Shown: in pieces, positions 18,865-44,887 of the stretch
How the letters are laid out: the number at the start of each line of letters is the position of its first letter
Numbering within the stretch: the stretch's first letter is position 1
Origin: a virus
Taxonomy: Duplodnaviria > Caudoviricetes
Length of the DNA: 64,000 bases
IMG/VR virus record: IMGVR_UViG_3300014204_000128
Coordinates: 32,001-96,000 of that record
Direction: 5' to 3' (one strand)
Notes under the pieces: model-generated
The model's input: only the letters and a program-made list of their open reading frames with translations
Database searches by the model: none
What the model was told of the DNA's origin: nothing
Translations under genes and position numbers: made by a program

Positions 18865-19423
18865 ATGGATTATATAAAAGAACATTTAGATAAAATATGC
18901 AGTTACATATCTTCAAAAGACACTAATACGAAGATATCATTGCTAAACGAGGTAAGGGAAAGATTGCACAGCATTTCTCCTTTCAAGAACGAACCCAGTT
19001 GATTTAGTAACATGGGTTCCTAATAATATAGTAGTGGCAAACGACTACAATCCAAACAAGGTAGCACCACCAGAAATGGAACTACTTGAAGTTTCAATAG
19101 TAAATGATGGTTACACACAACCTATAGTGACGTGGTCTGAAGGTAACGGTAAAGTAGAAGTAATAGACGGTTTTCACAGGAACAGGGTCGGTAAAGAGTC
19201 TAATCTTGTCAGGCAACGTGTACTAGGTTACCTTCCAGTTGTAGGAATTCACAAAGAACAGTCTAACAAGAGTGACAGGAACATGCTAGTAGCTAGTATA
19301 GCATGCGTGCATGGTGAGGTAATAATGACATGGGGTACTAATGAAGAAGACAAGGTAAAGTACAAGGCTTTCAATTACAGATGGTATCAATGCACGGTGA
19401 TAAGTTCAACGGGTCATTCATAA
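18865..19423 (+). pseudogene. Frameshifted and truncated IbrB/YbdM-like (ParB-type) gene
   Basis: ATG 18865 reads ...NEVRERLHSISPFKNEP, then an extra C near 18995 gives a TGA. The +1 frame continues VDLVTWVP..ANDYNPNKVAPPEM..DGFHR. Homology is lost after SNKSDR (no ASTIRHNRARG). Confidence 0.75.
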
Positions 19424-27733: not shown

Positions 27734-28867
27734 ATGGCAAAAACAAACAAGGTAACGCCTATTTCTGAACTAAGGAAAGCATATGGGAGACCAGAAACAC
27801 AGTATTATGATACTGGTATCTTCTTATTGAATGACATTTGGGGAGGAGGTTTGCCTACGGGTAAGATAATAGAAATACACTCAGGTGAGGGTCTTGGTAA
27901 GACTACAATCATGCTACAGGCATGTAAGTCATTGATAGCGAAACATAACTTGAAGGTGGCTTACTTAGACGTAGAGAACGCATTAGATATATCATTAAGG
28001 AGCAATTTGGGCATAGTACCATACGAAAGTAATGACGCTGTTGAACCATCTTTCGCTTACCTGTGCCCTTTCACGTACGATGAGGTGTCTAAGACACTAA
28101 ACATACTCACTCGGGGTAATTATGATATCATAATCTATGATTCAATAGCCAATACAAGCCTGGACGTGGATGACTCAGAGGAAGAAGATTTCAAGATAAG
28201 CAAGAAACTGGGACAGCACGCATTACTACAGGGTGAGTTATTGAAGATGTTCAAGGGAAGACTAGCACGGTCTGGTAAAACACTGGTAATAATAAACCAG
28301 ATGAGAACTAATATCATTACTAATCCTATGAAAGCTAAGCATGCACCCGAATTGAAGCCTGCTGGTGGTAAGGTTCTAGACCATAATTTCGATATAAGAA
28401 CATCTATAGAACGTGTGGAGTGGATATTCGATGACAGCAAGGTTAAGATGGGGGCTAAACTCAGGTTAACTACAATAAAGAACAAGGTGGCTCCTCCATA
28501 TAGACAAGTAGAACTGGAACTAATATTCGGGTGGGGTATCAACAAGATAACTACACTCTGTACAGTACTGGTGAATAAGAATATCGCTGTACGTACCGGG
28601 GCTGTTTATACTCTGCCTAATACTGTGAAATGTGTAGGTCTTGAGAAGTTGAAAGACTATATCCGCGAAAACTACGCATTGTGCTTGTCATTCGTCGGTG
28701 ATAGTTCATATCAAGTGAACATACTAGGAGAGAAGATAGAAGAAGGGGCAGCCGTAGATAAAACAGCAGACGGGAAGGAAATAGTCATAAAGGAGGATGC
28801 CGAAACGGGCGGGGTCTCGTATAATGAACTGGAAGAATCATTTAAACAACCAACCAAAAGAAGATGA
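27734..28867 (+). CDS. recA: RecA/UvsX-like recombinase
   Basis: GGGLPTGKIIEIHSGEGLGKTT, YLDVENALD, IIYDS, INQMR, KNKVAPPYR. Confidence 0.9.
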   Translation: MAKTNKVTPISELRKAYGRPETQYYDTGIFLLNDIWGGGLPTGKIIEIHSGEGLGKTTIMLQACKSLIAKHNLKVAYLDVENALDISLRSNLGIVPYESNDAVEPSFAYLCPFTYDEVSKTLNILTRGNYDIIIYDSIANTSLDVDDSEEEDFKISKKLGQHALLQGELLKMFKGRLARSGKTLVIINQMRTNIITNPMKAKHAPELKPAGGKVLDHNFDIRTSIERVEWIFDDSKVKMGAKLRLTTIKNKVAPPYRQVELELIFGWGINKITTLCTVLVNKNIAVRTGAVYTLPNTVKCVGLEKLKDYIRENYALCLSFVGDSSYQVNILGEKIEEGAAVDKTADGKEIVIKEDAETGGVSYNELEESFKQPTKRR

Positions 28868-29790
28868 GTAACTTATTCGGAAATCCCCACCTGGAAACTA
28901 AACGTAGTCTGAACGACTACTTCATAGTTAAACCTTTCTCGGTTCTCAATACAATGGAACAAGGGTGGATGAGAAGGAAAGCATGGTGGTGTGAAATAAT
29001 AACAAACAGGGGTAAGTCACGTGAAAGTGTCCTTTTCAAGAAGTCTGGAAAGGAGACTACAAAACTGGGTAACACTATACAGACATTTAACAACGGAGTA
29101 TCATTGTTTGACCCAGTACTATCAGAAGCAATGGTAAGATGGTTCTCCGAGAAAGGTTGGGTCATACTAGACCCATTCGCAGGTGATGAGTCAAGGGGTT
29201 TCGTTTCTTGTTATTTAGAAAGGAACTACGTGGGTATAGAGTTGAGACAGGAACAGGTGAACTTAAACAGGGACAGAGTTAAAGAAGCTGGGTTAACGGG
29301 TTACAAATATATTTGTGATACATCTCTTAATATGGACAAACACGTCCCAATGGAAGCGGTAGACATGATACTTACATGCCCTCCTTACGCATTCTTAGAA
29401 AAGTACTCTGACAATCCTGAAGATTTGTCAAATATGTCTGTTGAAGACTTTTTCAGGGTGTACGACCATATACTAAATAAGACATACAGTGTATTAAAGA
29501 ATAACAGGTTCGCTGTTGTAGTGGTATCTGAAGTAAGAGACAAGACTGGGGGATACATAGGTCTGGTAAATAAGACTATAGAATCGATGGAGAAAGCTGG
29601 ATACATGTACTACAACGAAATAATACTGCTTAACAATGTAGGAACACTCCGTTTCAGGGTAGGTAACCAGATGAACAGTGGAAGAAAAATAGGCAGGTTA
29701 CACCAGAACGTCCTAGTATTCTACAAGGGTAATGCATCAAAGATAAAGGAAAACTTTTCAAAACTAATAGGTGATGACAACGAAGAATAA
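28864..29790 (+). CDS. Amino-type DNA methyltransferase-fold protein (MTase 1)
   Basis: PFSVL, SLFDPVL, LDPFAG, GIELRQEQ, LTCPPY..LEKY, HQNVLVFYK. Confidence 0.85.
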   Translation: MSNLFGNPHLETKRSLNDYFIVKPFSVLNTMEQGWMRRKAWWCEIITNRGKSRESVLFKKSGKETTKLGNTIQTFNNGVSLFDPVLSEAMVRWFSEKGWVILDPFAGDESRGFVSCYLERNYVGIELRQEQVNLNRDRVKEAGLTGYKYICDTSLNMDKHVPMEAVDMILTCPPYAFLEKYSDNPEDLSNMSVEDFFRVYDHILNKTYSVLKNNRFAVVVVSEVRDKTGGYIGLVNKTIESMEKAGYMYYNEIILLNNVGTLRFRVGNQMNSGRKIGRLHQNVLVFYKGNASKIKENFSKLIGDDNEE

Positions 29791-30649
29791 TGTGACTGCT
29801 TTGACCCCTATAATACCATACGCTACAGTACTAGTTAAGAGGGAAGACATGTATGTAGAGGGTATGGTTAACGGAGGCAAGGTCAGGCAGTGCAGGATGT
29901 TGTTGGAGAATAATATAGACTTAATAAGAAATAGTTACGGTGGTCGTGTGGTGTGTTCAGTACATTTGCAGAGTCCACAGTCTGCAATTGTATCTCACGT
30001 GTGCAAGACACTAGGATTGGAATGTCATATAGTGGCTTACGGAACAACGGTTCCAAATACCCAGTTATCAATGGCAAAGAGGAACGGCGCTATACTGTAC
30101 GGTACTAAAAGTCCATACAGGACTACGCACGAGTTCATAATAAAGAACTATTTTTCTGACTGTTACTGGGTAAGGATGGGATTCGTTGATGACTCAATAG
30201 TTAACGCTACTCTGGCACAAGTGGAGAACATACCAGATTACTTGGATTATTTAGTTCTACCCATAGGAAGTGGGATAAACGCTGTCTCTGTAGTCAAGGG
30301 GTTAGAAAAGTATAATAAGAGTGTAAAGAATGTTATCGGTGTGTGGGTCGGTAAGAACAGAGAGCAGTTATTCAGGACAATGTTGGGTGAAGAATTAACT
30401 AGCAAGATAAAACTGGTTAAGGCTCATGTTGACTACAATACACATATTGACGTCGGTGTAGATTTCATTGATAGTGTATACGAGGCAAAAGCATGGCATT
30501 ACATGACTGAGAACATAGACACAAAAGTAAACAAGGTGCTGTTCTGGGTCGTGGGTACACGTAATGATACTAACGGGACTGAAGAACTTGTATGGCATGA
30601 TGCTAAAGAACGTGTTAAGTTCCGTATGTTTTCCAGGGGTGTTCAATAA
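29771..30649 (+). CDS. PLP-dependent enzyme, ACC deaminase/D-cysteine desulfhydrase-like (fold type II)
   Basis: LTPI..VKRED..GGKVRQ (Schiff-base Lys), LPIGSG, IDSVYEAKAW, LFWVVG. Confidence 0.8.
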   Translation: MMTTKNNVTALTPIIPYATVLVKREDMYVEGMVNGGKVRQCRMLLENNIDLIRNSYGGRVVCSVHLQSPQSAIVSHVCKTLGLECHIVAYGTTVPNTQLSMAKRNGAILYGTKSPYRTTHEFIIKNYFSDCYWVRMGFVDDSIVNATLAQVENIPDYLDYLVLPIGSGINAVSVVKGLEKYNKSVKNVIGVWVGKNREQLFRTMLGEELTSKIKLVKAHVDYNTHIDVGVDFIDSVYEAKAWHYMTENIDTKVNKVLFWVVGTRNDTNGTEELVWHDAKERVKFRMFSRGVQ

Positions 30650-30738: not shown

Positions 30739-30823
30739 GTTTGTGAAGACCACTTCTTTGTAGCAGTCCAGTAACTGCCGTTCCAGGTTGAGCCGACTAT
30801 TTCCGTAAATAGTCGGCTTTTTT
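30739..30823 (+). ncRNA. Putative ~85-nt small RNA
   Basis: Lies between the promoter motif and a terminator; two small hairpins; no ORF. Confidence 0.5.
30791..30823 (+). terminator. Intrinsic terminator
   Basis: Perfect 12-bp stem AGCCGACTATTT/AAATAGTCGGCT plus T run. Confidence 0.85.
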
Positions 30824-30833
30824 ATTCGTATAA

Positions 30834-32252
30834 TTGAAAAACATTAATGATATGGCAATTAAGGTAATAATAAGGCAGTTCGAAATAATAGAGGATGCAA
30901 AGTTAGTTCTGGATGGTTTGGTCGCACTTGTCGGAGAATCAAATAATGGTAAGACAGCAACATATAATGCATTGAAGGTGCTAACATATAACATACAAGG
31001 CACTGGTTACATCAGGAAGATAAATGGTAAACCATACCCAGCAGGTTGCTCTGTTGGTATACGTTTTGATGATACTAATTCAGAAGTAACTTTCGAGAAA
31101 TCTACATCACCTGTATACACGTTGAAAGTAGGAGACAGCAAACAGGTATTCGACAAAGCAGGCAGGGGACCAACACCTGAAGATGTTTCGTTATTATTGA
31201 ACATGGTTCCACTTGACATAGATGGTCTCTCAGTTAACTTGAACTTTGCTGACCAACTAGAAGAACCATTGCTACGTAAGTTGACAGACTTCCAACTGTA
31301 CAAGCTGGCTGTAAAGTCATCAGATGGGGAAAAGATACAGGAGGCTATTGCATTATGTAGGAAAGATACAGATGAAAAAGCAAAGGAACTTGTAAGGAAA
31401 GAAGAAGAAATAGTGGTACAGAAGAAGAGTAAGTTATCTCTAATAGCAGACTTGGACAGGTATTCAAATCTTATTGACATAAAGGTTGACTATGAGGTGT
31501 ATGATAAAATATGCAGGGTTTTACCTTATGTGATCACAATGGAAGGACAATACTCAGGCATAGTTAATAGCATATCAACGGTTGATGCTAATCTATCATT
31601 GTTTGAAAAACACGGTGTCATTTTCAGGAACTATGATGTTGCTAAGAAACTAATAGCAACACTTAATTATGTTGTATCAGTAAGTGATGACTATGAAAAG
31701 ATAGTAACTAATATAAATGTAACAGAAAAGAAATTAGATTCTTTGAACAAACTCAATGACTTAGAGAAAGAAAAAATATCTTACACACTGGGGGTTGGGA
31801 AATTAAGACTAGCACTAGAATATAATAATAGTTTGCTTAATATAGAAGCGGAATCTAATATTGTAAGTACTGGATTAACAACCCTAGGCAATAACCTTTC
31901 TACTTTGACTAATGATCTAATGTCATATAAAGACAGTGTAAAGAAATTATCAGATACAGTCTCGTTTAAAGAAGAGTACGAAAGTATATCAAATAGAATA
32001 AATTCAGTAACAAGTCAACTAGAAACGTATACAGACATAAGTGGTTTCGACAAGTACAAGAAAACATGCACAAGTTTGAATATACTACCAGTTCTCGGTA
32101 ATCAGCAACAAATGGTATCTAAGAGATTATGTGGTATAGAAGAAGAATTGAAACTAATAGAAACTGATAGGGCATCTACTCAATACATGATCGATAATCA
32201 TGTTTGTCCTGTATGTGGTATGGATGAAACAGGTAAAAAATGTAATCATTAA
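30834..32252 (+). CDS. SbcC/Rad50-like ATPase, N-terminal half
   Basis: Walker A GESNNGKT, Q-loop-like NFADQ, long coiled coil, terminal zinc hook CPVC. Likely start is 30852. Confidence 0.8.
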   Translation: MKNINDMAIKVIIRQFEIIEDAKLVLDGLVALVGESNNGKTATYNALKVLTYNIQGTGYIRKINGKPYPAGCSVGIRFDDTNSEVTFEKSTSPVYTLKVGDSKQVFDKAGRGPTPEDVSLLLNMVPLDIDGLSVNLNFADQLEEPLLRKLTDFQLYKLAVKSSDGEKIQEAIALCRKDTDEKAKELVRKEEEIVVQKKSKLSLIADLDRYSNLIDIKVDYEVYDKICRVLPYVITMEGQYSGIVNSISTVDANLSLFEKHGVIFRNYDVAKKLIATLNYVVSVSDDYEKIVTNINVTEKKLDSLNKLNDLEKEKISYTLGVGKLRLALEYNNSLLNIEAESNIVSTGLTTLGNNLSTLTNDLMSYKDSVKKLSDTVSFKEEYESISNRINSVTSQLETYTDISGFDKYKKTCTSLNILPVLGNQQQMVSKRLCGIEEELKLIETDRASTQYMIDNHVCPVCGMDETGKKCNH

Positions 32253-34071: not shown

Positions 34072-34995
34072 ATGAAATTTTACTTTGCAACGGACATACA
34101 CTTATCCTCTGTTATTCCCGGGGCACGTATAGATAACTATACTGAAACAGTGTTCTCAAAGATAGAATACTTACTTGAACAATGTAGTAAGGACAAAGCA
34201 GTTCTGTTACTAGGGGGCGACTTGTTCATGACACCAACACAACCTGACTGGATAAAGAATAGATTAAAAGACTTGATACTCAAATACAGTGTCAGGGTTA
34301 TATCTATAGTTGGGAACCACGACCTAGTTCATTACAATGTCGATTATATAGAGAGGACATCATTCCAGACACTCGTTAGTCCTGGAATTATAGACTTCCT
34401 GCACCCCCTTAGTAATAGTTACATACAGATAGATGACTGGAAGATAGTGGGGCACGCTTTCGCACAGAATTTCCCAGTGGACGGTGGGGTAATAGATAGC
34501 AAGACTATCGTGCTGTCTCATTGCTTTTATGACTACAGTAAAGAGGATAAGTTATCGGTTCACAGGCAAGAAGTGTACAGGTCAGGTGCTAAATTCATTT
34601 GCTTCGGTCACGATCACAACCAATATCCTGTTGAAGATAATAATGGGACACTAGTAGTAAGACCTGGAGCACTCACAAGGGGGACATCTCATACAGAAAA
34701 TAGGGTAAGACAGGTAGGTTACGCAATTATAGACACGGATACATTACAAGTAACATATGCAAGTATACCGTTCGCAATGGGTTTCAAGGAAGTATTCAGG
34801 GAAAAATATGATGTTGAAAGGGTTCGGGAACCAATAACGTTTGCAGAAATACAGTCTTTTATTGATGAACTCAGGAATGCCAAACTAGACGTGAATCCAT
34901 ACAACATACTGCTAAATTTGAATAAAAGGGAAGTTATAGTCAGGAAGTGTACTAACTACTTAGAAGCAGTAGGTTTGATAAATGAAGGGGCTTGA
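34072..34995 (+). CDS. SbcD/Mre11-like metallophosphoesterase nuclease
   Basis: TDIH, GGDLF, GNHD, LSH, FGHDH, RPGAL. Confidence 0.9.
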   Translation: MKFYFATDIHLSSVIPGARIDNYTETVFSKIEYLLEQCSKDKAVLLLGGDLFMTPTQPDWIKNRLKDLILKYSVRVISIVGNHDLVHYNVDYIERTSFQTLVSPGIIDFLHPLSNSYIQIDDWKIVGHAFAQNFPVDGGVIDSKTIVLSHCFYDYSKEDKLSVHRQEVYRSGAKFICFGHDHNQYPVEDNNGTLVVRPGALTRGTSHTENRVRQVGYAIIDTDTLQVTYASIPFAMGFKEVFREKYDVERVREPITFAEIQSFIDELRNAKLDVNPYNILLNLNKREVIVRKCTNYLEAVGLINEGA

Positions 34996-37217: not shown

Positions 37218-37892
37218 ATGGCTTTGAATGTTAATGTAGATGTGTTTTCGAATAAGGATATACGTGAAGCAGTAACAGTAATTAGAGACGTAGCAAGCAG
37301 AAGGAAACTAGGTATACCCAGATGGGACAATGTCTTAGACATGTACCCATACTCGGGTACTGTAGTGATACCGGTTAAGATTGGGGCACGTGTCTTCAAA
37401 GAACCATTTTATTTCGTAATAGAAAAAGTAAACGATAGAGAAAGTCTGCGTATAAAACCAGTAAAGGGAGACCAGTGGTCACTTGGTGACGTGTATGGTT
37501 TCTTTGGTCTGTATGATTTCTTTGATTACACTCTGGATATGCCTATACTAGTCGTGGAAGGTTTAAGTGATTGGGCTGCTGTAAAGCCTTACTACAAGTA
37601 CACACTCTCATCATTATCGGCATGGGTCGGTTACAGACAGTGTTTTTTCATAAGTGGTATTAGTAGCAACATATTCCTGGGGTACGACTTGGACGAAACA
37701 GGGGATAAAAACAAGAACAGGAATAGTGAAACACTAAACAAGATGGGTGCAAATGTAGGTTTCTTGCAGCCACCACAAAAGGACTGGGGTCACATGTTCG
37801 AAAGTGATTTCGGTAAGATGCTTTTAGAAAAAACAATGTTAGGTTTCATGGAAAAAGTAAACAGTATAAACAGGAAAATATTATACAAGTAA
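37218..37892 (+). CDS. DnaG-like primase TOPRIM-domain protein
   Basis: ILVVEGLSDW, GYDLDETG, QKDWG. Confidence 0.7.
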   Translation: MALNVNVDVFSNKDIREAVTVIRDVASRRKLGIPRWDNVLDMYPYSGTVVIPVKIGARVFKEPFYFVIEKVNDRESLRIKPVKGDQWSLGDVYGFFGLYDFFDYTLDMPILVVEGLSDWAAVKPYYKYTLSSLSAWVGYRQCFFISGISSNIFLGYDLDETGDKNKNRNSETLNKMGANVGFLQPPQKDWGHMFESDFGKMLLEKTMLGFMEKVNSINRKILYK

Positions 37893-40800
37893 TGGGTAGG
37901 ACAGATGAATCCCTAAAGGGGTCAAGAAGCGAAAGAGAAGTACTTTTACAAAGGTTTGAAGGTACGGTCATAGAATCAATACTGGTACACAACAGGTCAG
38001 ACAAAGCAACTGACTTAACTGTTGAAAGAAGGTACGATAATGTTAAGGAAACAAGGGAAGCATTCCTAGATGAATATATAAGTAAGTCGGGGGACTTGGA
38101 GAACATAGCTGACATGGATGAGTTTAAGCAGCAGTTCAGGTCAGGCTTCGAAGGTTCTCGGGGTGCTGGGAAGACACTCTCTCGGTTCTCTCAGAACATT
38201 TGCAGGAACGTGATACAGTTCTACACGGAAGAAGGTGATACTATAGTCGACCCGTTCGCTGGTCATAATTGTTTAACACAAGAAGCTCCAGTAATATCTA
38301 AAAGAGGGGTTATTCCAATAGAGGATATTGTAGTTGGTGACTTTGTATTAACACACAAGAATAGATTCAGAGAAGTTATAGGTACACAGAAAAACTATGG
38401 TGGTGATGGTGGTAAACAATTCACAATAGCAGGCAATATGGTTTTGCCAATAACTGACAACCATCCTATGTGGGTATATCAAACAGAACTGTGTCCTTAC
38501 TATAGAAATGATAAAACACTAGTTTCTGGTAAACGTTGCTTAAAAGAATGTTCTATAAGTAAGAATAAAGAAAATCTTGTACGTATTAAAAAAGGTGACG
38601 TTAATTATAGGGGAGGGGATAGACGTACTAGTATGTGTACTAAACCATTTGAAAATTACAAGGCTGACTTTAAGTATGCAAAAGACGTAAAAGTAGGTTC
38701 ATACATTGGTTTTCCTATAGACTCTGATATTATAGACACTGAATTTATACTCATTTCTGATAAAACATGGATAGGTAGCAATACTAAAATACAGGGGGAC
38801 TATATTGTTACTACAAAAAAAGTAAATAATAAAATACTCATAAATGAAGAATTTATGAGATTAGTTGGTTACTTTATAGCAGAAGGAACTGCACTAGGAT
38901 CTTTGACGTTTTCTTTTCATAAAAAAGAAGTCGAGTATAGGAAAGACGTTATGTATTTACTTGACAAATGTCTAGGTATGGACAGTAGCGAAGAAATAAA
39001 TGATGAAACAAACACAGGTTATGTTATTTCTGAGAACTCTGAAGCAATCACACGATTTTTTAGAGAAACATTCGGTACACATTCATACAGTAAAAAGTTA
39101 CCGGAATTTTTAATGAAGTTGCCAAAAGAAAAACAAAAGGAATTCATACTCGGTTACTTTAGAGGTGATGGGCATTTTAATACAGAAACATCCCAAAGGG
39201 TAGCTGTTACGACATCACAGACGTTAGCACTTCAATTAAAAATACTGTTACTTAGATTAGACTTGATACCTAACACAAGAAAGGTGCCTTTTGAAAAACA
39301 AAATAGTTACAAAATTAATGATAAGTGGGGAATACAATCAAAACATGATGCATACTATGTATACGTGTCAGGATCTGATATAAATGTTATAGATAAGATA
39401 CTTGGTAATAAACACGATGTTATTTATAAAAATAAATTTAATACTTTCGTAAAAGACGGGTACGCTTGGTATAAGGTTCTAAAGATTAAAGACCATGATC
39501 TATCACAGAAATACGTATATAATATCGAAGTAGATGAAGATAATTCATATACATTGATGCAGGGTTGTGTACATAATAGTAGAATGGAAGCAACGTATAG
39601 GACGAACCGCAATTACTATGGGCAGGACTTATGCCACGAGTTCATGGAAGACAATAGGAAGGTACGTGATATGCTATTGGCTCAAAACAGTGGTAAACTA
39701 TTCATGAAGCCAAAAACAACAGTGATAGATTTATCTGAAGGGGACAGTCGGAAATTGCCTTGGGACGATAACTTCGGTGATTTCACGGTCACAAGCCCAC
39801 CGTATTGGTGTCTAGTACCTGAAACTCATATATTAACAAAAAGAGGTACTATTGAAATACAAGATTTAAAAGAAGGGGACTTTGTTTACACACATAATGG
39901 GAGGTGGAGAAAAGTAAAGGGTGTTTCATTTAGAGAAATAGACGATACAATCACACGTATAAAGGTAAAGAATAACAGTACTCCACTAAATTTAACAGAT
40001 AATCATAAGTTACTTGCATTAAAAACAAGTGTTTGTGCATACTTTAAAAAAGACAGTGTGTGTAGACCAAATTGTGGATATCTAAATAATGGAAACTGGG
40101 AAAAGCATAAATGTACAAAAAGTTGTGAAAACTATACACCAACGTTTACTCTGCCTACAGAACTAACACGTCAACATTATGTTGCTGCTCCTATAGACAG
40201 AACTGTGAATAAATCTGAAAACATAATACTCAGAAAAACAGTAGCAAAAAATAAGTATGATTTTACTCTTAAAAATGATATACCAGTAACTAAGGAACTA
40301 GCAAGGTTCATAGGTTATTATATAGCAGAAGGGTCAAGTGTAGAAGGTGGTGTAGATTTGTGTTTTAATAAAAACGAAGTAGAGTACATTGAAGACGTTA
40401 AAAATCTATTTGAAACATTGTTTGGGATAAGTCATGTATACTATCATGAGCAAGTAAATGCTGCACATGTTGGGGTGTACTGCACTCCACTACAAGAGTG
40501 GTTAAATGTAAATTGTGGAGAAGGTTCTCTAAATAAAAAAGTGCCAGACTTTTTATTACATGAAGAATTAGAAATTCAAAAAGAATTAATGCTTGGGCTT
40601 TACAGTGGTGACGGGTGTGACTATTCTGAAGGGTATAATTACTCAACAGTTTCTAAGACACTGAAAGAACAAATAAAATTCATTCTATTAAGGTTTAATA
40701 TATCTCCAACAATGGGTCACCAAAAAGGTGGTTACAGGAATATACTGGGAAGAGTATGTTACACTAATACATCTTATAGTTTGAACGTAATAGATAAAAA

Positions 40801-41368
40801 TGGAATATGCCTGCTTGACAATGTACTTGGAAGAAAACATCGTAAAGCAAATATAGGGACTAATTGTTATTCACAGTCCTTTATAGTCAATGACTACGTG
40901 TATTACAGAGTTTCTAAAGTAAGTAAGATACATTATAAGGGTAAAGTTTATAATTGTGAAGTAGAAGAAGACAATAGTTATACTACAGACGTTTGCACAG
41001 TCCATAATTGTTTAGAAGACTATGGTCCAGAAAAGGAACAACTGGGTTACGGGATGAACCAGACATACGAGGAGTTCCTAGATGGGATGCAACTAGTGTG
41101 TAATGAAAACTACAGGGTATTAAAACCAGGAGCTTTCTGTATTTACTTTATCAATGACTTTCGTAAGGATGGGAAGTTCTACGATTTCCACGGTGACATG
41201 AAGAATCTATTGGTGAACTCTGGGTTCGTGTATCATGATTTAATAATAGCAGATTTGGGGCCAAGTCTCAGGTCTGTATTTTTAGCAGCTGCTTTCAAAA
41301 GTAAGGTATTGCCAAAGAGACATGAATTTGGGGTGGTGATGAGAAAACCATTATTGAAAGGGAAATAG
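37892..41368 (+). CDS. Amino-type DNA methyltransferase-fold protein (MTase 2) with two inteins; spliced product 322 aa
   Basis: Exteins reconstitute LSRFS, VDPFAGHN|SR, GDSR, TSPPYW|CLEDY, RVLKPG, KRHE. Confidence 0.88.
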   Translation: MGRTDESLKGSRSEREVLLQRFEGTVIESILVHNRSDKATDLTVERRYDNVKETREAFLDEYISKSGDLENIADMDEFKQQFRSGFEGSRGAGKTLSRFSQNICRNVIQFYTEEGDTIVDPFAGHNCLTQEAPVISKRGVIPIEDIVVGDFVLTHKNRFREVIGTQKNYGGDGGKQFTIAGNMVLPITDNHPMWVYQTELCPYYRNDKTLVSGKRCLKECSISKNKENLVRIKKGDVNYRGGDRRTSMCTKPFENYKADFKYAKDVKVGSYIGFPIDSDIIDTEFILISDKTWIGSNTKIQGDYIVTTKKVNNKILINEEFMRLVGYFIAEGTALGSLTFSFHKKEVEYRKDVMYLLDKCLGMDSSEEINDETNTGYVISENSEAITRFFRETFGTHSYSKKLPEFLMKLPKEKQKEFILGYFRGDGHFNTETSQRVAVTTSQTLALQLKILLLRLDLIPNTRKVPFEKQNSYKINDKWGIQSKHDAYYVYVSGSDINVIDKILGNKHDVIYKNKFNTFVKDGYAWYKVLKIKDHDLSQKYVYNIEVDEDNSYTLMQGCVHNSRMEATYRTNRNYYGQDLCHEFMEDNRKVRDMLLAQNSGKLFMKPKTTVIDLSEGDSRKLPWDDNFGDFTVTSPPYWCLVPETHILTKRGTIEIQDLKEGDFVYTHNGRWRKVKGVSFREIDDTITRIKVKNNSTPLNLTDNHKLLALKTSVCAYFKKDSVCRPNCGYLNNGNWEKHKCTKSCENYTPTFTLPTELTRQHYVAAPIDRTVNKSENIILRKTVAKNKYDFTLKNDIPVTKELARFIGYYIAEGSSVEGGVDLCFNKNEVEYIEDVKNLFETLFGISHVYYHEQVNAAHVGVYCTPLQEWLNVNCGEGSLNKKVPDFLLHEELEIQKELMLGLYSGDGCDYSEGYNYSTVSKTLKEQIKFILLRFNISPTMGHQKGGYRNILGRVCYTNTSYSLNVIDKNGICLLDNVLGRKHRKANIGTNCYSQSFIVNDYVYYRVSKVSKIHYKGKVYNCEVEEDNSYTTDVCTVHNCLEDYGPEKEQLGYGMNQTYEEFLDGMQLVCNENYRVLKPGAFCIYFINDFRKDGKFYDFHGDMKNLLVNSGFVYHDLIIADLGPSLRSVFLAAAFKSKVLPKRHEFGVVMRKPLLKGK
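38270..39577 (+). mobile_element. Intein 1 (436 aa) with LAGLIDADG homing endonuclease
   Basis: Starts CLTQ; block B ITDNHP; LVGYFIAEG and ILGYFRGDG; ends VYNIEV...CVHN followed by Ser. Confidence 0.92.
39809..41008 (+). mobile_element. Intein 2 (400 aa) with LAGLIDADG homing endonuclease
   Basis: Starts CLVP; LTDNHK; FIGYYIAEG and MLGLYSGDG; ends VYNCEV...TVHN followed by Cys. Confidence 0.92.
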
Positions 41369-42829: not shown

Positions 42830-43243
42830 ATGGAAATAAATTCAGGTAACTACGTTGAGAACGTAAGGAGAACAGAACCTAGGGATTATACTCAGGTAAA
42901 GGAAAGACTACAAGATGAGGACACTATAAAGTTACTGCATGCTGCTCTAGGTCTGGTAACAGAGGCAGCAGAGGTTGCTGACGTCCTAAAGAAGCACATC
43001 TTCTATGGTAAACCGATAGACAGCGTAAATCTTAAAGAGGAAGTAGGTGATGGTATGTGGTACGCAGGGATAGCTATAGATGTACTCAGGACAACTATGG
43101 ATGATGTTCTATCATGTAACATTGAGAAACTACGTAAAAGATACCCTGATAAGTTCAATGTTCATGATGCACTGCACAGGGATAAAGAAAATGAAATGTC
43201 TCACTTTAAAACAGGAACAAATGAAGAAAAAATTAATGACTAA
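42830..43243 (+). CDS. MazG-like NTP pyrophosphohydrolase
   Basis: ALGLVTEAAEVADVLKK, EEVGDGMWY, NIEKLRKRYP. Confidence 0.85.
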   Translation: MEINSGNYVENVRRTEPRDYTQVKERLQDEDTIKLLHAALGLVTEAAEVADVLKKHIFYGKPIDSVNLKEEVGDGMWYAGIAIDVLRTTMDDVLSCNIEKLRKRYPDKFNVHDALHRDKENEMSHFKTGTNEEKIND

Positions 43244-43754
43244 AAGTTGCGCTCGGGATATAGCAAGGGCAATGGTTAAGGCAACAGTTAAGGAAAAGAT
43301 AAAAGAGAAGAGACAGGAACTAGATAACTTCGTTAAAGAAGTCATGGAAAGGCATTTCCCTGAAGGAACATACAAATCTATTTGCTCTATAGATCAAGCA
43401 TGGTTATTCACTAGGGGTAATTTTTATTTTAAATATGGTTCTCTAGCTCTGGTAAGTATCTACTTGTTAAAAAACATACCATTCAAGTCTGGTAAAGATT
43501 CTGTTATCGTTGTGAGTAAGGAAGACTACGATAAACTATATGATATGAACAAAGTCATACAGAACATGGACAACGAGGATGAGCTCATGTTCAAAATGGT
43601 AGTAGAAACTTTGTGCAGGTTGAAGACAGAAAAGAAGATAAAAGAGCAGTTACCAGAGTGTATGCCATATATTCCAACTGACTTCTTTAAAGTGTCAGAA
43701 TTGCCAGCAGTACAGACTACTGAATTAACCAAATTACTCACTAAATACAAGTAA
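43221..43754 (+). CDS. Nmad5-like (nucleotide-modification-associated) protein
   Basis: Likely start 43221; C-terminal LKTEKKIKEQLPE..YIP...LPAV pattern. Confidence 0.5.
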   Translation: MKKKLMTKSCARDIARAMVKATVKEKIKEKRQELDNFVKEVMERHFPEGTYKSICSIDQAWLFTRGNFYFKYGSLALVSIYLLKNIPFKSGKDSVIVVSKEDYDKLYDMNKVIQNMDNEDELMFKMVVETLCRLKTEKKIKEQLPECMPYIPTDFFKVSELPAVQTTELTKLLTKYK

Positions 43755-43756
43755 GA

Positions 43757-44887
43757 ATGATACAATATCTAGAAATTCTATCAGAAGTCCTGCAAGAAGG
43801 AACTGAAAAAAGTCCAGCACGCTCTGGTATGCCAAAGACTATCTCAAGGTTCGGTATAACTAAGAGATTTGACTTATCAAAAGGTTTTCCACTAGTCACT
43901 ACAAAACAGGTCAGCTTTAAGAATATAGCACACGAACTAATACTGTTTCTAAAAGGAGACTGCAATATAAAGTACCTTGTTGACAATAATGTCAACATAT
44001 GGAATGAGGACGCATACAAGTGGTACGTTAATTTTGCTAAAGATAACGGGGGTGAGGAGCAGAACTGTATAATGCATGACAATGGTGATGGTACTGTTAG
44101 AATGCTATTACTAGATGAATTCATCCAAAGAATAAAAGAAGTAAAGTCAAAAATTAACTTGCCAATATACTGGTTATCTGATAGAATGCAGGAAGAGCAC
44201 GGGTGTATTTGTTATACATTAGGAAGTATAGGTAAGTCATACCCAAAACAATGGAGGAATTATACAGGGGTAGTCGAGCATATGGAACAAGTATATGATG
44301 TAGACCAGATAGCTGAAGTTATCAGAAGACTAAAGGAATCACCTGAAGACAGATACAAGGTGGTCTGTGCGTGGAATCCTTCAGAATTCAAGGACACGGC
44401 ACTGCCTCCCTGTCATATTCTATTCCAGTTAAACTGTAGGCCACTAAGTGATGATGAAAGAGCAGAATTACTAGAAAACAAACTAGGTAGGCCAGTAATG
44501 GAATACGACAATGTTGAACAGGTTCATAAGTGGTACACAGAAATTCCTTTGTATAAGTTGGATTTAGCAATAACTCAAAGATCTTGTGACTCTGTACTTG
44601 GTGTTCCATACAATATCGCATCATACGCATTACTCACCCATATATTCGCTCACTTAGCAAACATGGTTCCAGGAGATTTAATATGGACGGGTAATGATGT
44701 TCATATATATGAGAATCATATCACACAGGTATCCGAACAACTCTCAAGAAAACCTTTTAATTTGCCAACGTTATTGATAGATAAAGAACTAACATCTATA
44801 GACGATGTCAAATTAGAACACTTTAGAATAGTAGGGTATCAACATCATGAAAAGATAGAAGCAAAACTATCAACAGGTCTAAGATAA
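43757..44887 (+). CDS. thyA: Thymidylate synthase
   Basis: FPLVTTK, AWNP, LPPCH, QRSCD, GVPYNIASY, DVHIYENH. Confidence 0.95.
   Translation: MIQYLEILSEVLQEGTEKSPARSGMPKTISRFGITKRFDLSKGFPLVTTKQVSFKNIAHELILFLKGDCNIKYLVDNNVNIWNEDAYKWYVNFAKDNGGEEQNCIMHDNGDGTVRMLLLDEFIQRIKEVKSKINLPIYWLSDRMQEEHGCICYTLGSIGKSYPKQWRNYTGVVEHMEQVYDVDQIAEVIRRLKESPEDRYKVVCAWNPSEFKDTALPPCHILFQLNCRPLSDDERAELLENKLGRPVMEYDNVEQVHKWYTEIPLYKLDLAITQRSCDSVLGVPYNIASYALLTHIFAHLANMVPGDLIWTGNDVHIYENHITQVSEQLSRKPFNLPTLLIDKELTSIDDVKLEHFRIVGYQHHEKIEAKLSTGLR

Follow-up and report, generated by a model that had tools for sequence, protein, structure and literature searches.

Within a 64,000-nucleotide stretch of phage DNA (positions 32,001 to 96,000 of the IMG/VR record IMGVR_UViG_3300014204_000128; hereafter the window, to which all coordinates refer), two overlapping genes of the + strand were distinguished, encoding an amino-methyltransferase-fold protein (308 aa; 28864..29790) and a fold-type-II pyridoxal 5'-phosphate (PLP) enzyme (292 aa when counted from GTG; 29771..30649). 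The two genes are best explained as a post-replicative DNA-modification module. The first product is an S-adenosylmethionine (SAM)-binding enzyme of the amino-methyltransferase fold, and the two genes, which are translationally coupled, are found as a pair in many phages, several of which have them fused. As for the chemistry, the reading that we favour, tentatively and at slightly less than even odds, is that the first enzyme moves the aminocarboxypropyl group of SAM onto a DNA base and that the PLP enzyme decarboxylates the adduct to an aminopropyl group. In this scheme, drawn from sequence comparisons, (i) the methyltransferase-fold enzyme, which has Phe at position 82 and Arg at position 111, would bind SAM with the carboxylate in place; (ii) the 3-amino-3-carboxypropyl arm of SAM, and not the methyl group, would be passed to the exocyclic amino group of a flipped-out base; and (iii) the PLP enzyme would take the carboxyl group off on the DNA, leaving a positively charged 3-aminopropyl base. 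Sister phages with an S-adenosylmethionine decarboxylase (AdoMetDC) as the partner and a Leu82/Phe111 pocket would arrive at the same product by prior decarboxylation of SAM followed by aminopropyl transfer, and in the nearest relatives the carboxylate would be processed by a PP-loop ATPase instead. The likely use of such a modification is to shield the phage DNA from host nucleases.

The methyltransferase-fold protein matches the Pfam family N6_N4_Mtase (PF01555; E = 4.1e-15, 56.8 bits versus a cut-off of 26.7), phrog_12517 (1e-82) and the C-terminal half (profile positions 324-610; 5.8e-77) of phrog_498, a ParB-methyltransferase family; 4638 relatives were found at E<=1e-10. Three motifs were located on the + strand: (i) a motif X region, LFDP, holding Phe82 (29104..29115); (ii) motif I, DPFAGDESRG, holding Arg111 (29170..29199), of which DPFAG corresponds to residues 103-107 (29170..29184); and (iii) motif IV, TCPPY, the catalytic loop of amino-methyltransferases (residues 171-175; 29374..29388). 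Motif I precedes motif IV, which is the reverse of the beta-class order (IV before I), and the two halves of the protein align in swapped order to solved beta-class enzymes (TTHA0409, 2zie; N4CMT, 8s9n; M.PvuII), which identifies it, on alignment evidence, as a circularly permuted relative of the beta-class N4/N6 DNA methyltransferases (PF01555). The DPFAG motif I and the PPY loop are common to both, whereas the window enzyme is permuted, carries a Cys where D, N or S is usual and an Arg in place of the last Thr of GSGTT, and belongs to a family coupled to decarboxylases or to a PP-loop enzyme. The Cys had been pointed out in the initial annotation, made from the sequence alone, as a replacement of the usual D, N or S, and it is real: the tetrapeptide reads CPPY against the canonical (D/N/S)PP(Y/F), and C172 is kept in 25/25 sequences of the near subfamily, while distant PLP-linked members have TSPPY. 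The Cys was considered as a marker of PLP-linked members, or else as a nucleophile of the C5 type; as a marker it was rejected, since it is a family trait that does not vary with the partner in the subfamily and is present also where there is no PLP partner.

An AlphaFold model of the protein (pLDDT 75.8) has a class I methyltransferase fold, and Trm11, TrmN and Trm14 are its nearest folds in Foldseek. Enzymes of this type methylate the exocyclic N2 of guanine. Aminopropyl and aminocarboxypropyl transferases (SpeE, TYW2) gave no Pfam or NCBIfam match to the protein, and no transferase of either kind is among the top Foldseek matches listed for the model. No ParB_N match was obtained within the 308 residues, although most relatives carry a fused ParB domain. 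A stand-alone ParB-N-like gene (19034..19423, + strand; phrog_2159, 4.6e-28; Pfam ParB_N 22.3 bits, below the cut-off) is situated approximately 9.4 kb upstream of this ParB-less methyltransferase gene; it is possibly the detached counterpart of the domain fused in most relatives and, as such, a putative member of the module.

The PLP gene starts at GTG 29771 or at ATG 29774, the latter being the choice of the gene callers and the likely start. The initial annotation had placed the methyltransferase-fold gene directly after recA and in a 20-nt overlap with the PLP gene, and these coordinates were confirmed (the overlap is 17 nt from the alternative ATG). The PLP product matches phrog_3650 (4.8e-21), phrog_7093 (1.1e-8) and Pfam PALP (35.1 bits versus a cut-off of 35), and its subfamily comprises 301 cluster representatives at E<=1e-30. 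A profile built from 18 relatives was compared by hhalign with two phage proteins and aligned end to end with both: gp226 of Salmonella phage ViI (99.65%, E = 4.9e-25, 264 columns) and gp52 of Pseudomonas phage M6 (98.8%, E = 4.3e-17, 255 columns), the latter itself falling in phrog_7093. Decarboxylation of O-seryl-thymine and C-alpha-glycinyl-thymine in DNA has been demonstrated for these two enzymes, and their Schiff-base lysines, K92 and K36, respectively, were proposed from structure-prediction alignments (PMC8989533). The predicted Schiff-base lysine of the window enzyme (GGKVRQ; 29873..29890, + strand), invariant in 18/18 relatives, aligns with the GGNK lysine of 1j0a and falls within the stretch of gp226 and gp52 that contains their lysines. 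The motifs SPQ, NQVENIPD, YE-K and FW-VG are common to the PLP protein and gp226, and the GS loop (phosphate loop) is present.

The structural model of the PLP protein (pLDDT 83.6) has D-cysteine desulfhydrase (DcyD) and 1-aminocyclopropane-1-carboxylate (ACC) deaminase (both with E of about 1e-11) and SbnA as its top Foldseek matches. The description of the enzyme as ACC-deaminase/D-cysteine-desulfhydrase-like is therefore right with regard to the nearest folds, but the curated NCBIfam models of these two enzymes gave no match, the best PDB profile match to them reached only E = 2.6e-8, far weaker than the gp226 match, and gp226 and gp52 are closer kin; no other enzymes are known that trim DNA-bound amino acids. 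Of the catalytic residue set of ACC deaminase and D-cysteine desulfhydrase, the Tyr-Glu pair is kept (VYEAK), but in place of the QSN loop the window protein has SPQ, as does gp226. By its sequence, the protein is an intact member of the phage family that decarboxylates amino-acid adducts on DNA, and not a metabolic ACC deaminase; the earlier remark that PLP enzymes tailor such adducts on phage DNA was well aimed, since hhalign places the protein in exactly that family. The fold and the Pfam family shared with ACC deaminase and D-cysteine desulfhydrase would also suit an auxiliary metabolic gene that stands beside the methyltransferase gene by chance, which we consider scarcely credible in view of these profile comparisons and of the conserved linkage and fusions with the methyltransferase (see below). 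The presence of SbnA among the top structural matches suggests a different chemistry, in which the PLP enzyme, like SbnA and cysteine synthase, would make aminoacrylate from serine, O-acetylserine or cysteine, and a base held by the methyltransferase-like protein would attack it to yield an alanyl adduct, SAM not being the donor. Beta-replacement is indeed common in fold-type-II PLP enzymes. This route is nevertheless very unlikely: the partner has strictly conserved motifs for SAM binding, the closest characterised relatives of the PLP protein are decarboxylases, and the AdoMetDC and PP-loop alternatives described below would be left unexplained.

The window pair resembles the ViI gp226 and M6 gp52 systems in the PLP family, the aligned lysine, the shared motifs, the phage origin of the genes and the post-replicative action, but gp226 and gp52 act on thymine, in pathways that also include a 5-hydroxymethyldeoxyuridine (5-hmdU) DNA kinase and an amino-acid:DNA transferase (PMC8989533), whereas the protein that constantly accompanies the PLP enzyme here is of the methyltransferase fold. 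Homologues of M6 gp51 and gp54 and of ViI gp243 and gp247 were not found by tblastn (BLAST-level sensitivity) in the 113-kb record, a linear fragment estimated to be ~53% complete, so that the absence of any gene from this phage is provisional. Likewise, neither the record nor 80 PLP loci yielded a tblastn match to the M6/ViI amino-acid:DNA transferases, 5-hmdU DNA kinases or radical SAM isomerase.

The linkage of the two genes was analyzed from the PLP side in 80 viral contigs and six other loci with a PLP relative, which form 32 groups at 70% identity. A methyltransferase of the same family was found within 6 kb of the PLP gene in 22 of the 32 groups, and in at least 15 of these 22 the two genes are directly adjacent, overlapping or fused, both gene orders being represented; in one more group, a canonical beta-class amino-methyltransferase is encoded next door. 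Four end-to-end fusions were identified, three of the methyltransferase-PLP type (P0035, P0099 and P0160) and one of the PLP-methyltransferase type (P0096). In gp70 of Pseudanabaena phage Pam4, the SAM-binding and catalytic halves of the methyltransferase are separated by the PLP domain, which is inserted between them. This insertion was considered as a sign of channelling, but it gives no evidence of that kind, as the domain enters the loop between helix B and strand 3, at the far side of the Rossmann fold. The PLP-linked lineages are scattered across the methyltransferase tree.

Other contexts of the PLP family were also recorded. In four PLP groups (20 loci; L057:879-3904, L038, L077 and L085), there is no methyltransferase, and the PLP gene comes after a pair of ParB-N genes and a radical-SAM-like gene of 339 aa; this is a different, likewise undescribed setting of the family. 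Protein P0053 (765 aa) has a segment similar to the C-terminal domain of phosphatidylglycerol lysyltransferase before its PLP domain, and P0056 (844 aa) has a similarly placed PLP domain, with an N-terminal region that has no Pfam match. A gene resembling the same lysyltransferase domain (L174:8434-9381) lies near a methyltransferase/PP-loop pair. The donor used by the C-terminal domain of phosphatidylglycerol lysyltransferase is aminoacyl-tRNA. In one PLP-methyltransferase lineage, DNA polymerase A is fused to uracil-DNA glycosylase (L004:220-1920), a fusion type associated in a 2026 paper with T-modified phage genomes.

Seen from the methyltransferase side, the picture is complemented by two further partners. 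Eighty viral contigs carrying the nearest relatives of the window methyltransferase (44-54% identity; 45 groups) were analyzed, and a PLP gene was found in 0 of the 80. A gene encoding AdoMetDC (~112 aa) is located directly downstream of the methyltransferase gene in 68 of these loci, i.e., in 38 of the 45 groups, mostly overlapping it; the product matches the whole Pfam AdoMet_dc profile (3.5e-21) and retains, at the site of pyruvoyl processing, the ES/H/C residues. No AdoMetDC was found in the PLP loci, the PP-loop loci or the record of the window. In syntenic phages, whose methyltransferases are 59-73% identical to that of the window, the slot after the methyltransferase gene holds either a PP-loop ATPase gene (329-338 aa, SGGKDS; loci L171/L172, L173, L174, L176/L177 and L182) or, in L175/L181, a PLP gene whose product is 57% identical to that of the window. 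The PP-loop protein gave weak matches to the PAPS-reductase, QueC and TilS families. The three partners (AdoMetDC, PLP enzyme and PP-loop ATPase) were never found together in the sampled loci. The neighbourhood survey proposed with the initial annotation thus bears out the linkage in 22 of the 32 PLP groups, with repeated fusions, but the nearest syntenic relatives mostly have the PP-loop ATPase instead of the PLP enzyme. PLP pairing and AdoMetDC pairing belong to a single methyltransferase family, to which the window adds an unfused, ParB-less example, together with an exchange of PLP and PP-loop genes in one slot among close relatives. In the Erythrobacter phages R6L and ZS04 (L002 and L003), the gene for a ParB-methyltransferase-PLP fusion and one for a PAPS-reductase-like protein are a few genes apart; a genome can therefore hold both the PLP type and the PP-loop type, though not at the same slot in our sample.

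The PP-loop ATPase is of the kind that activates carboxylates. All three partners act on an alpha-amino acid or a carboxylate. Methyl transfer does not involve the amino-acid end of SAM, with which all of them are concerned, and this pattern favours transfer of an aminocarboxypropyl or aminopropyl group. The initial annotation had offered two options: that a larger SAM-derived group is transferred and then trimmed by the PLP enzyme, or that the PLP enzyme prepares the donor. The partner pattern favours the former, and the latter fared less well, for reasons that lie in the methyltransferase sequences.

An alignment of ~300 columns was used to compare 38 AdoMetDC-linked groups with 12 readable sequences from loci without AdoMetDC, which represent at least six lineages. 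Exactly two columns split the two sets: column 82, with Leu in 38/38 AdoMetDC-linked groups versus Phe, and column 111, with Phe in all AdoMetDC-linked groups versus Arg. Phe82 is invariant in 13/13 PLP-linked methyltransferases and Arg111 is likewise invariant in the PLP-linked set; only 13 positions, these two included, are invariant across the highly divergent PLP-linked proteins. Arg111 occurs in members with a PLP partner, in those with a PP-loop partner and in those that stand alone. The residue at position 111 is Phe in 105 and Arg in 13 of the 120 nearest database relatives, and for three Arg111 proteins checked afterwards the partners were a PLP enzyme (one), a PP-loop protein (one) and none (one). 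The cultured phages follow the same division: P2559S (with AdoMetDC) has Leu/Phe, and B054, phiFL3A and HCTV-2 (without AdoMetDC) have Phe/Arg. In the structure of Trm14, the alpha-carboxylate of SAM is held by S228 and T230 of motif I and by the backbone near motif X (PMC3367198), and in the alignment S228 and T230 correspond to positions 108 and 110 of the window methyltransferase. Because motif I and the motif X region of the aligned Trm14 hold the SAM carboxylate, we infer that columns 82 and 111 flank the carboxylate site.

These columns bear on the possibility that the PLP enzyme replaces AdoMetDC by decarboxylating free SAM, the methyltransferase-fold enzyme then using decarboxylated SAM. 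The two decarboxylase genes never occur together and occupy the same position beside the same methyltransferase family, as would be expected of such a replacement. However, all PLP-linked methyltransferases are of the Phe82/Arg111 type and not of the Leu82/Phe111 type that accompanies AdoMetDC, and the characterised relatives of the PLP enzyme act on DNA adducts, not on SAM; we therefore regard preparation of the donor by the PLP enzyme as improbable.

Several observations weigh against transfer of the aminocarboxypropyl group followed by decarboxylation on the DNA. The first enzyme has the fold and motifs of an ordinary methyltransferase of exocyclic amines, with N2-methylguanine (m2G) and N6-methyladenine (m6A) methyltransferases as its nearest folds, and members of the Phe82/Arg111 type stand alone in several phages (Listeria phage B054, Enterococcus phage phiFL3A and L180), where they may simply methylate. 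The role of residues 82 and 111 rests on the alignment to Trm14 and not on a structure. Moreover, in a tree built with columns 82 and 111 masked, the AdoMetDC-linked set forms one clade (support 0.954), so that the two-column change amounts to one evolutionary event and is a clade marker rather than repeated covariation. Finally, the half of the genome that is missing from the record could encode an amino-acid:DNA transferase. The lack of a PLP partner in most of the family, in contrast, seems to count for less, given that AdoMetDC accompanies most of these members.

Such observations leave some room for a simpler arrangement, in which the first gene encodes a DNA methyltransferase of the ordinary kind, acting on N4 of cytosine or N6 of adenine to protect the phage DNA, and the PLP enzyme either helps in another way or trims an adduct made by an enzyme from the unsequenced half. 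The intact SAM motifs, the (S/C)PPY motif and the methyltransferase fold are consistent with this arrangement, close relatives of the Phe82/Arg111 type without any partner are common, and the incompleteness of the record allows for a further enzyme. On the other hand, a methylated base gives the PLP enzyme nothing to act on, no homologue of the M6/ViI amino-acid:DNA transferase or 5-hmdU kinase was found in the record, and both the repeated adjacency, overlaps and independent fusions and the exclusive choice among three carboxylate-directed partners would go unexplained. Ordinary methylation is thus a serious but rather unlikely explanation.

No methyltransferase-PLP, methyltransferase-AdoMetDC or aminopropyl-DNA modification system was found described in the literature that could be searched. 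Several known systems share some of the parts of the proposed route. One is that of Croceibacter phage P2559S, whose ParB-methyltransferase gp66 belongs to the same family (43% identity to the window protein) and is likewise coupled to a decarboxylase, its gene overlapping that of gp67 (AdoMetDC). By complementation, gp67 is a true SAM decarboxylase; the study regards it as a polyamine gene, with no mention of gp66 next to it (PMC9992855). The two systems differ in that P2559S has a pyruvoyl decarboxylase acting on free SAM, Leu82/Phe111 and a fused ParB domain, whereas the window has a PLP enzyme, Phe82/Arg111 and no ParB domain. In Synechococcus phage S-B43, CmoA, CmoX and CmoY produce carboxymethylcytosine (PMC12783734). 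As proposed for the window pair, a methyltransferase-fold enzyme there moves a non-methyl group from a SAM derivative to DNA, the carboxylate serves as the handle for a second enzyme, and ParB genes are often near; in contrast, the S-B43 system relies on a C5-cytosine methyltransferase fold, carboxy-SAM from CmoA and an AMP-forming ligase, none of which was found in the window.

Each proposed step also has a precedent outside DNA: (i) transfer of the aminocarboxypropyl group by a class I methyltransferase fold (TYW2, in wybutosine synthesis), (ii) amidation of an aminocarboxypropyl carboxylate by a PP-loop ATPase (Dph6, in diphthamide synthesis), and (iii) aminopropyl transfer from decarboxylated SAM (spermidine synthase with AdoMetDC). 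None of these enzymes is known to act on DNA, and none was among the best sequence or fold matches.

More broadly, it is conceivable, though a little short of an even chance, that a widespread phage family of methyltransferase fold aminopropylates DNA bases by two converging routes, with a third branch that uses a PP-loop ATPase. If so, the family would define a new class of DNA hypermodification, and no DNA enzyme before it would have drawn on the aminobutyryl arm of SAM; decoration of phage DNA with cationic aminopropyl (or aminocarboxypropyl) groups from SAM would be an undescribed process that adds a base modification to those known and gives methyltransferase folds a new type of reaction on DNA. 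It would also explain why many phages carry a SAM decarboxylase without spermidine synthase. Marks of this kind bear on restriction, CRISPR and sequencing chemistry, with a possible use in DNA labelling. Cultured phages are available for the AdoMetDC type (P2559S), the PLP-fused type (Pam4, vB_EliS_R6L and ZS04) and the stand-alone type (B054 and phiFL3A), and both window genes are small enough for expression.

The record that contains the window comprises 113,383 bases, with large open reading frames (ORFs) all on one strand and a G+C content of 34-41%. A nucleotide search of a phage collection revealed no DNA-level relative among deposited phages. One syntenic relative encodes a Por_Secre_tail domain, the sorting signal of type IX secretion in Bacteroidota, and the host is therefore probably a member of this phylum.

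The methyltransferase-fold and PLP genes are the second and third of a + strand run of three overlapping genes. The first encodes a RecA/UvsX-like recombinase (27734..28867; Pfam RecA 4.4e-28, phrog_97), and its 3' end overlaps the start of the methyltransferase gene by 4 nt; the same recA-methyltransferase order occurs in the syntenic relatives L171, L173, L174, L176 and L181. The unit ends with a terminator-like hairpin (30790..30819, + strand), the 13-bp stem of which leads into a run of T, and the first gene beyond it starts at position 30834. That gene (30834..32252, +; phrog_16465) belongs to an SbcC-like exonuclease family and is followed by one for an SbcD/Mre11-like metallophosphoesterase (34072..34995, +), in an order shared with the syntenic relatives.

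Further downstream, an ORF of 1158 aa (37892..41368, +) contains LAGLIDADG, Hint and intein-splicing domains and a C-terminal N6_N4 methyltransferase segment; judging by these domains, it looks like a second DNA methyltransferase gene split by an intein. A gene with nucleotide-modification-associated domain 5 (Nmad5; 43080..43754, +) lies directly 5' of the thymidylate synthase gene (43757..44887, +). The latter had been described as canonical, which is correct for its catalytic motifs, but the protein also contains two insertions, at approximately residues 87-157 and 226-266.

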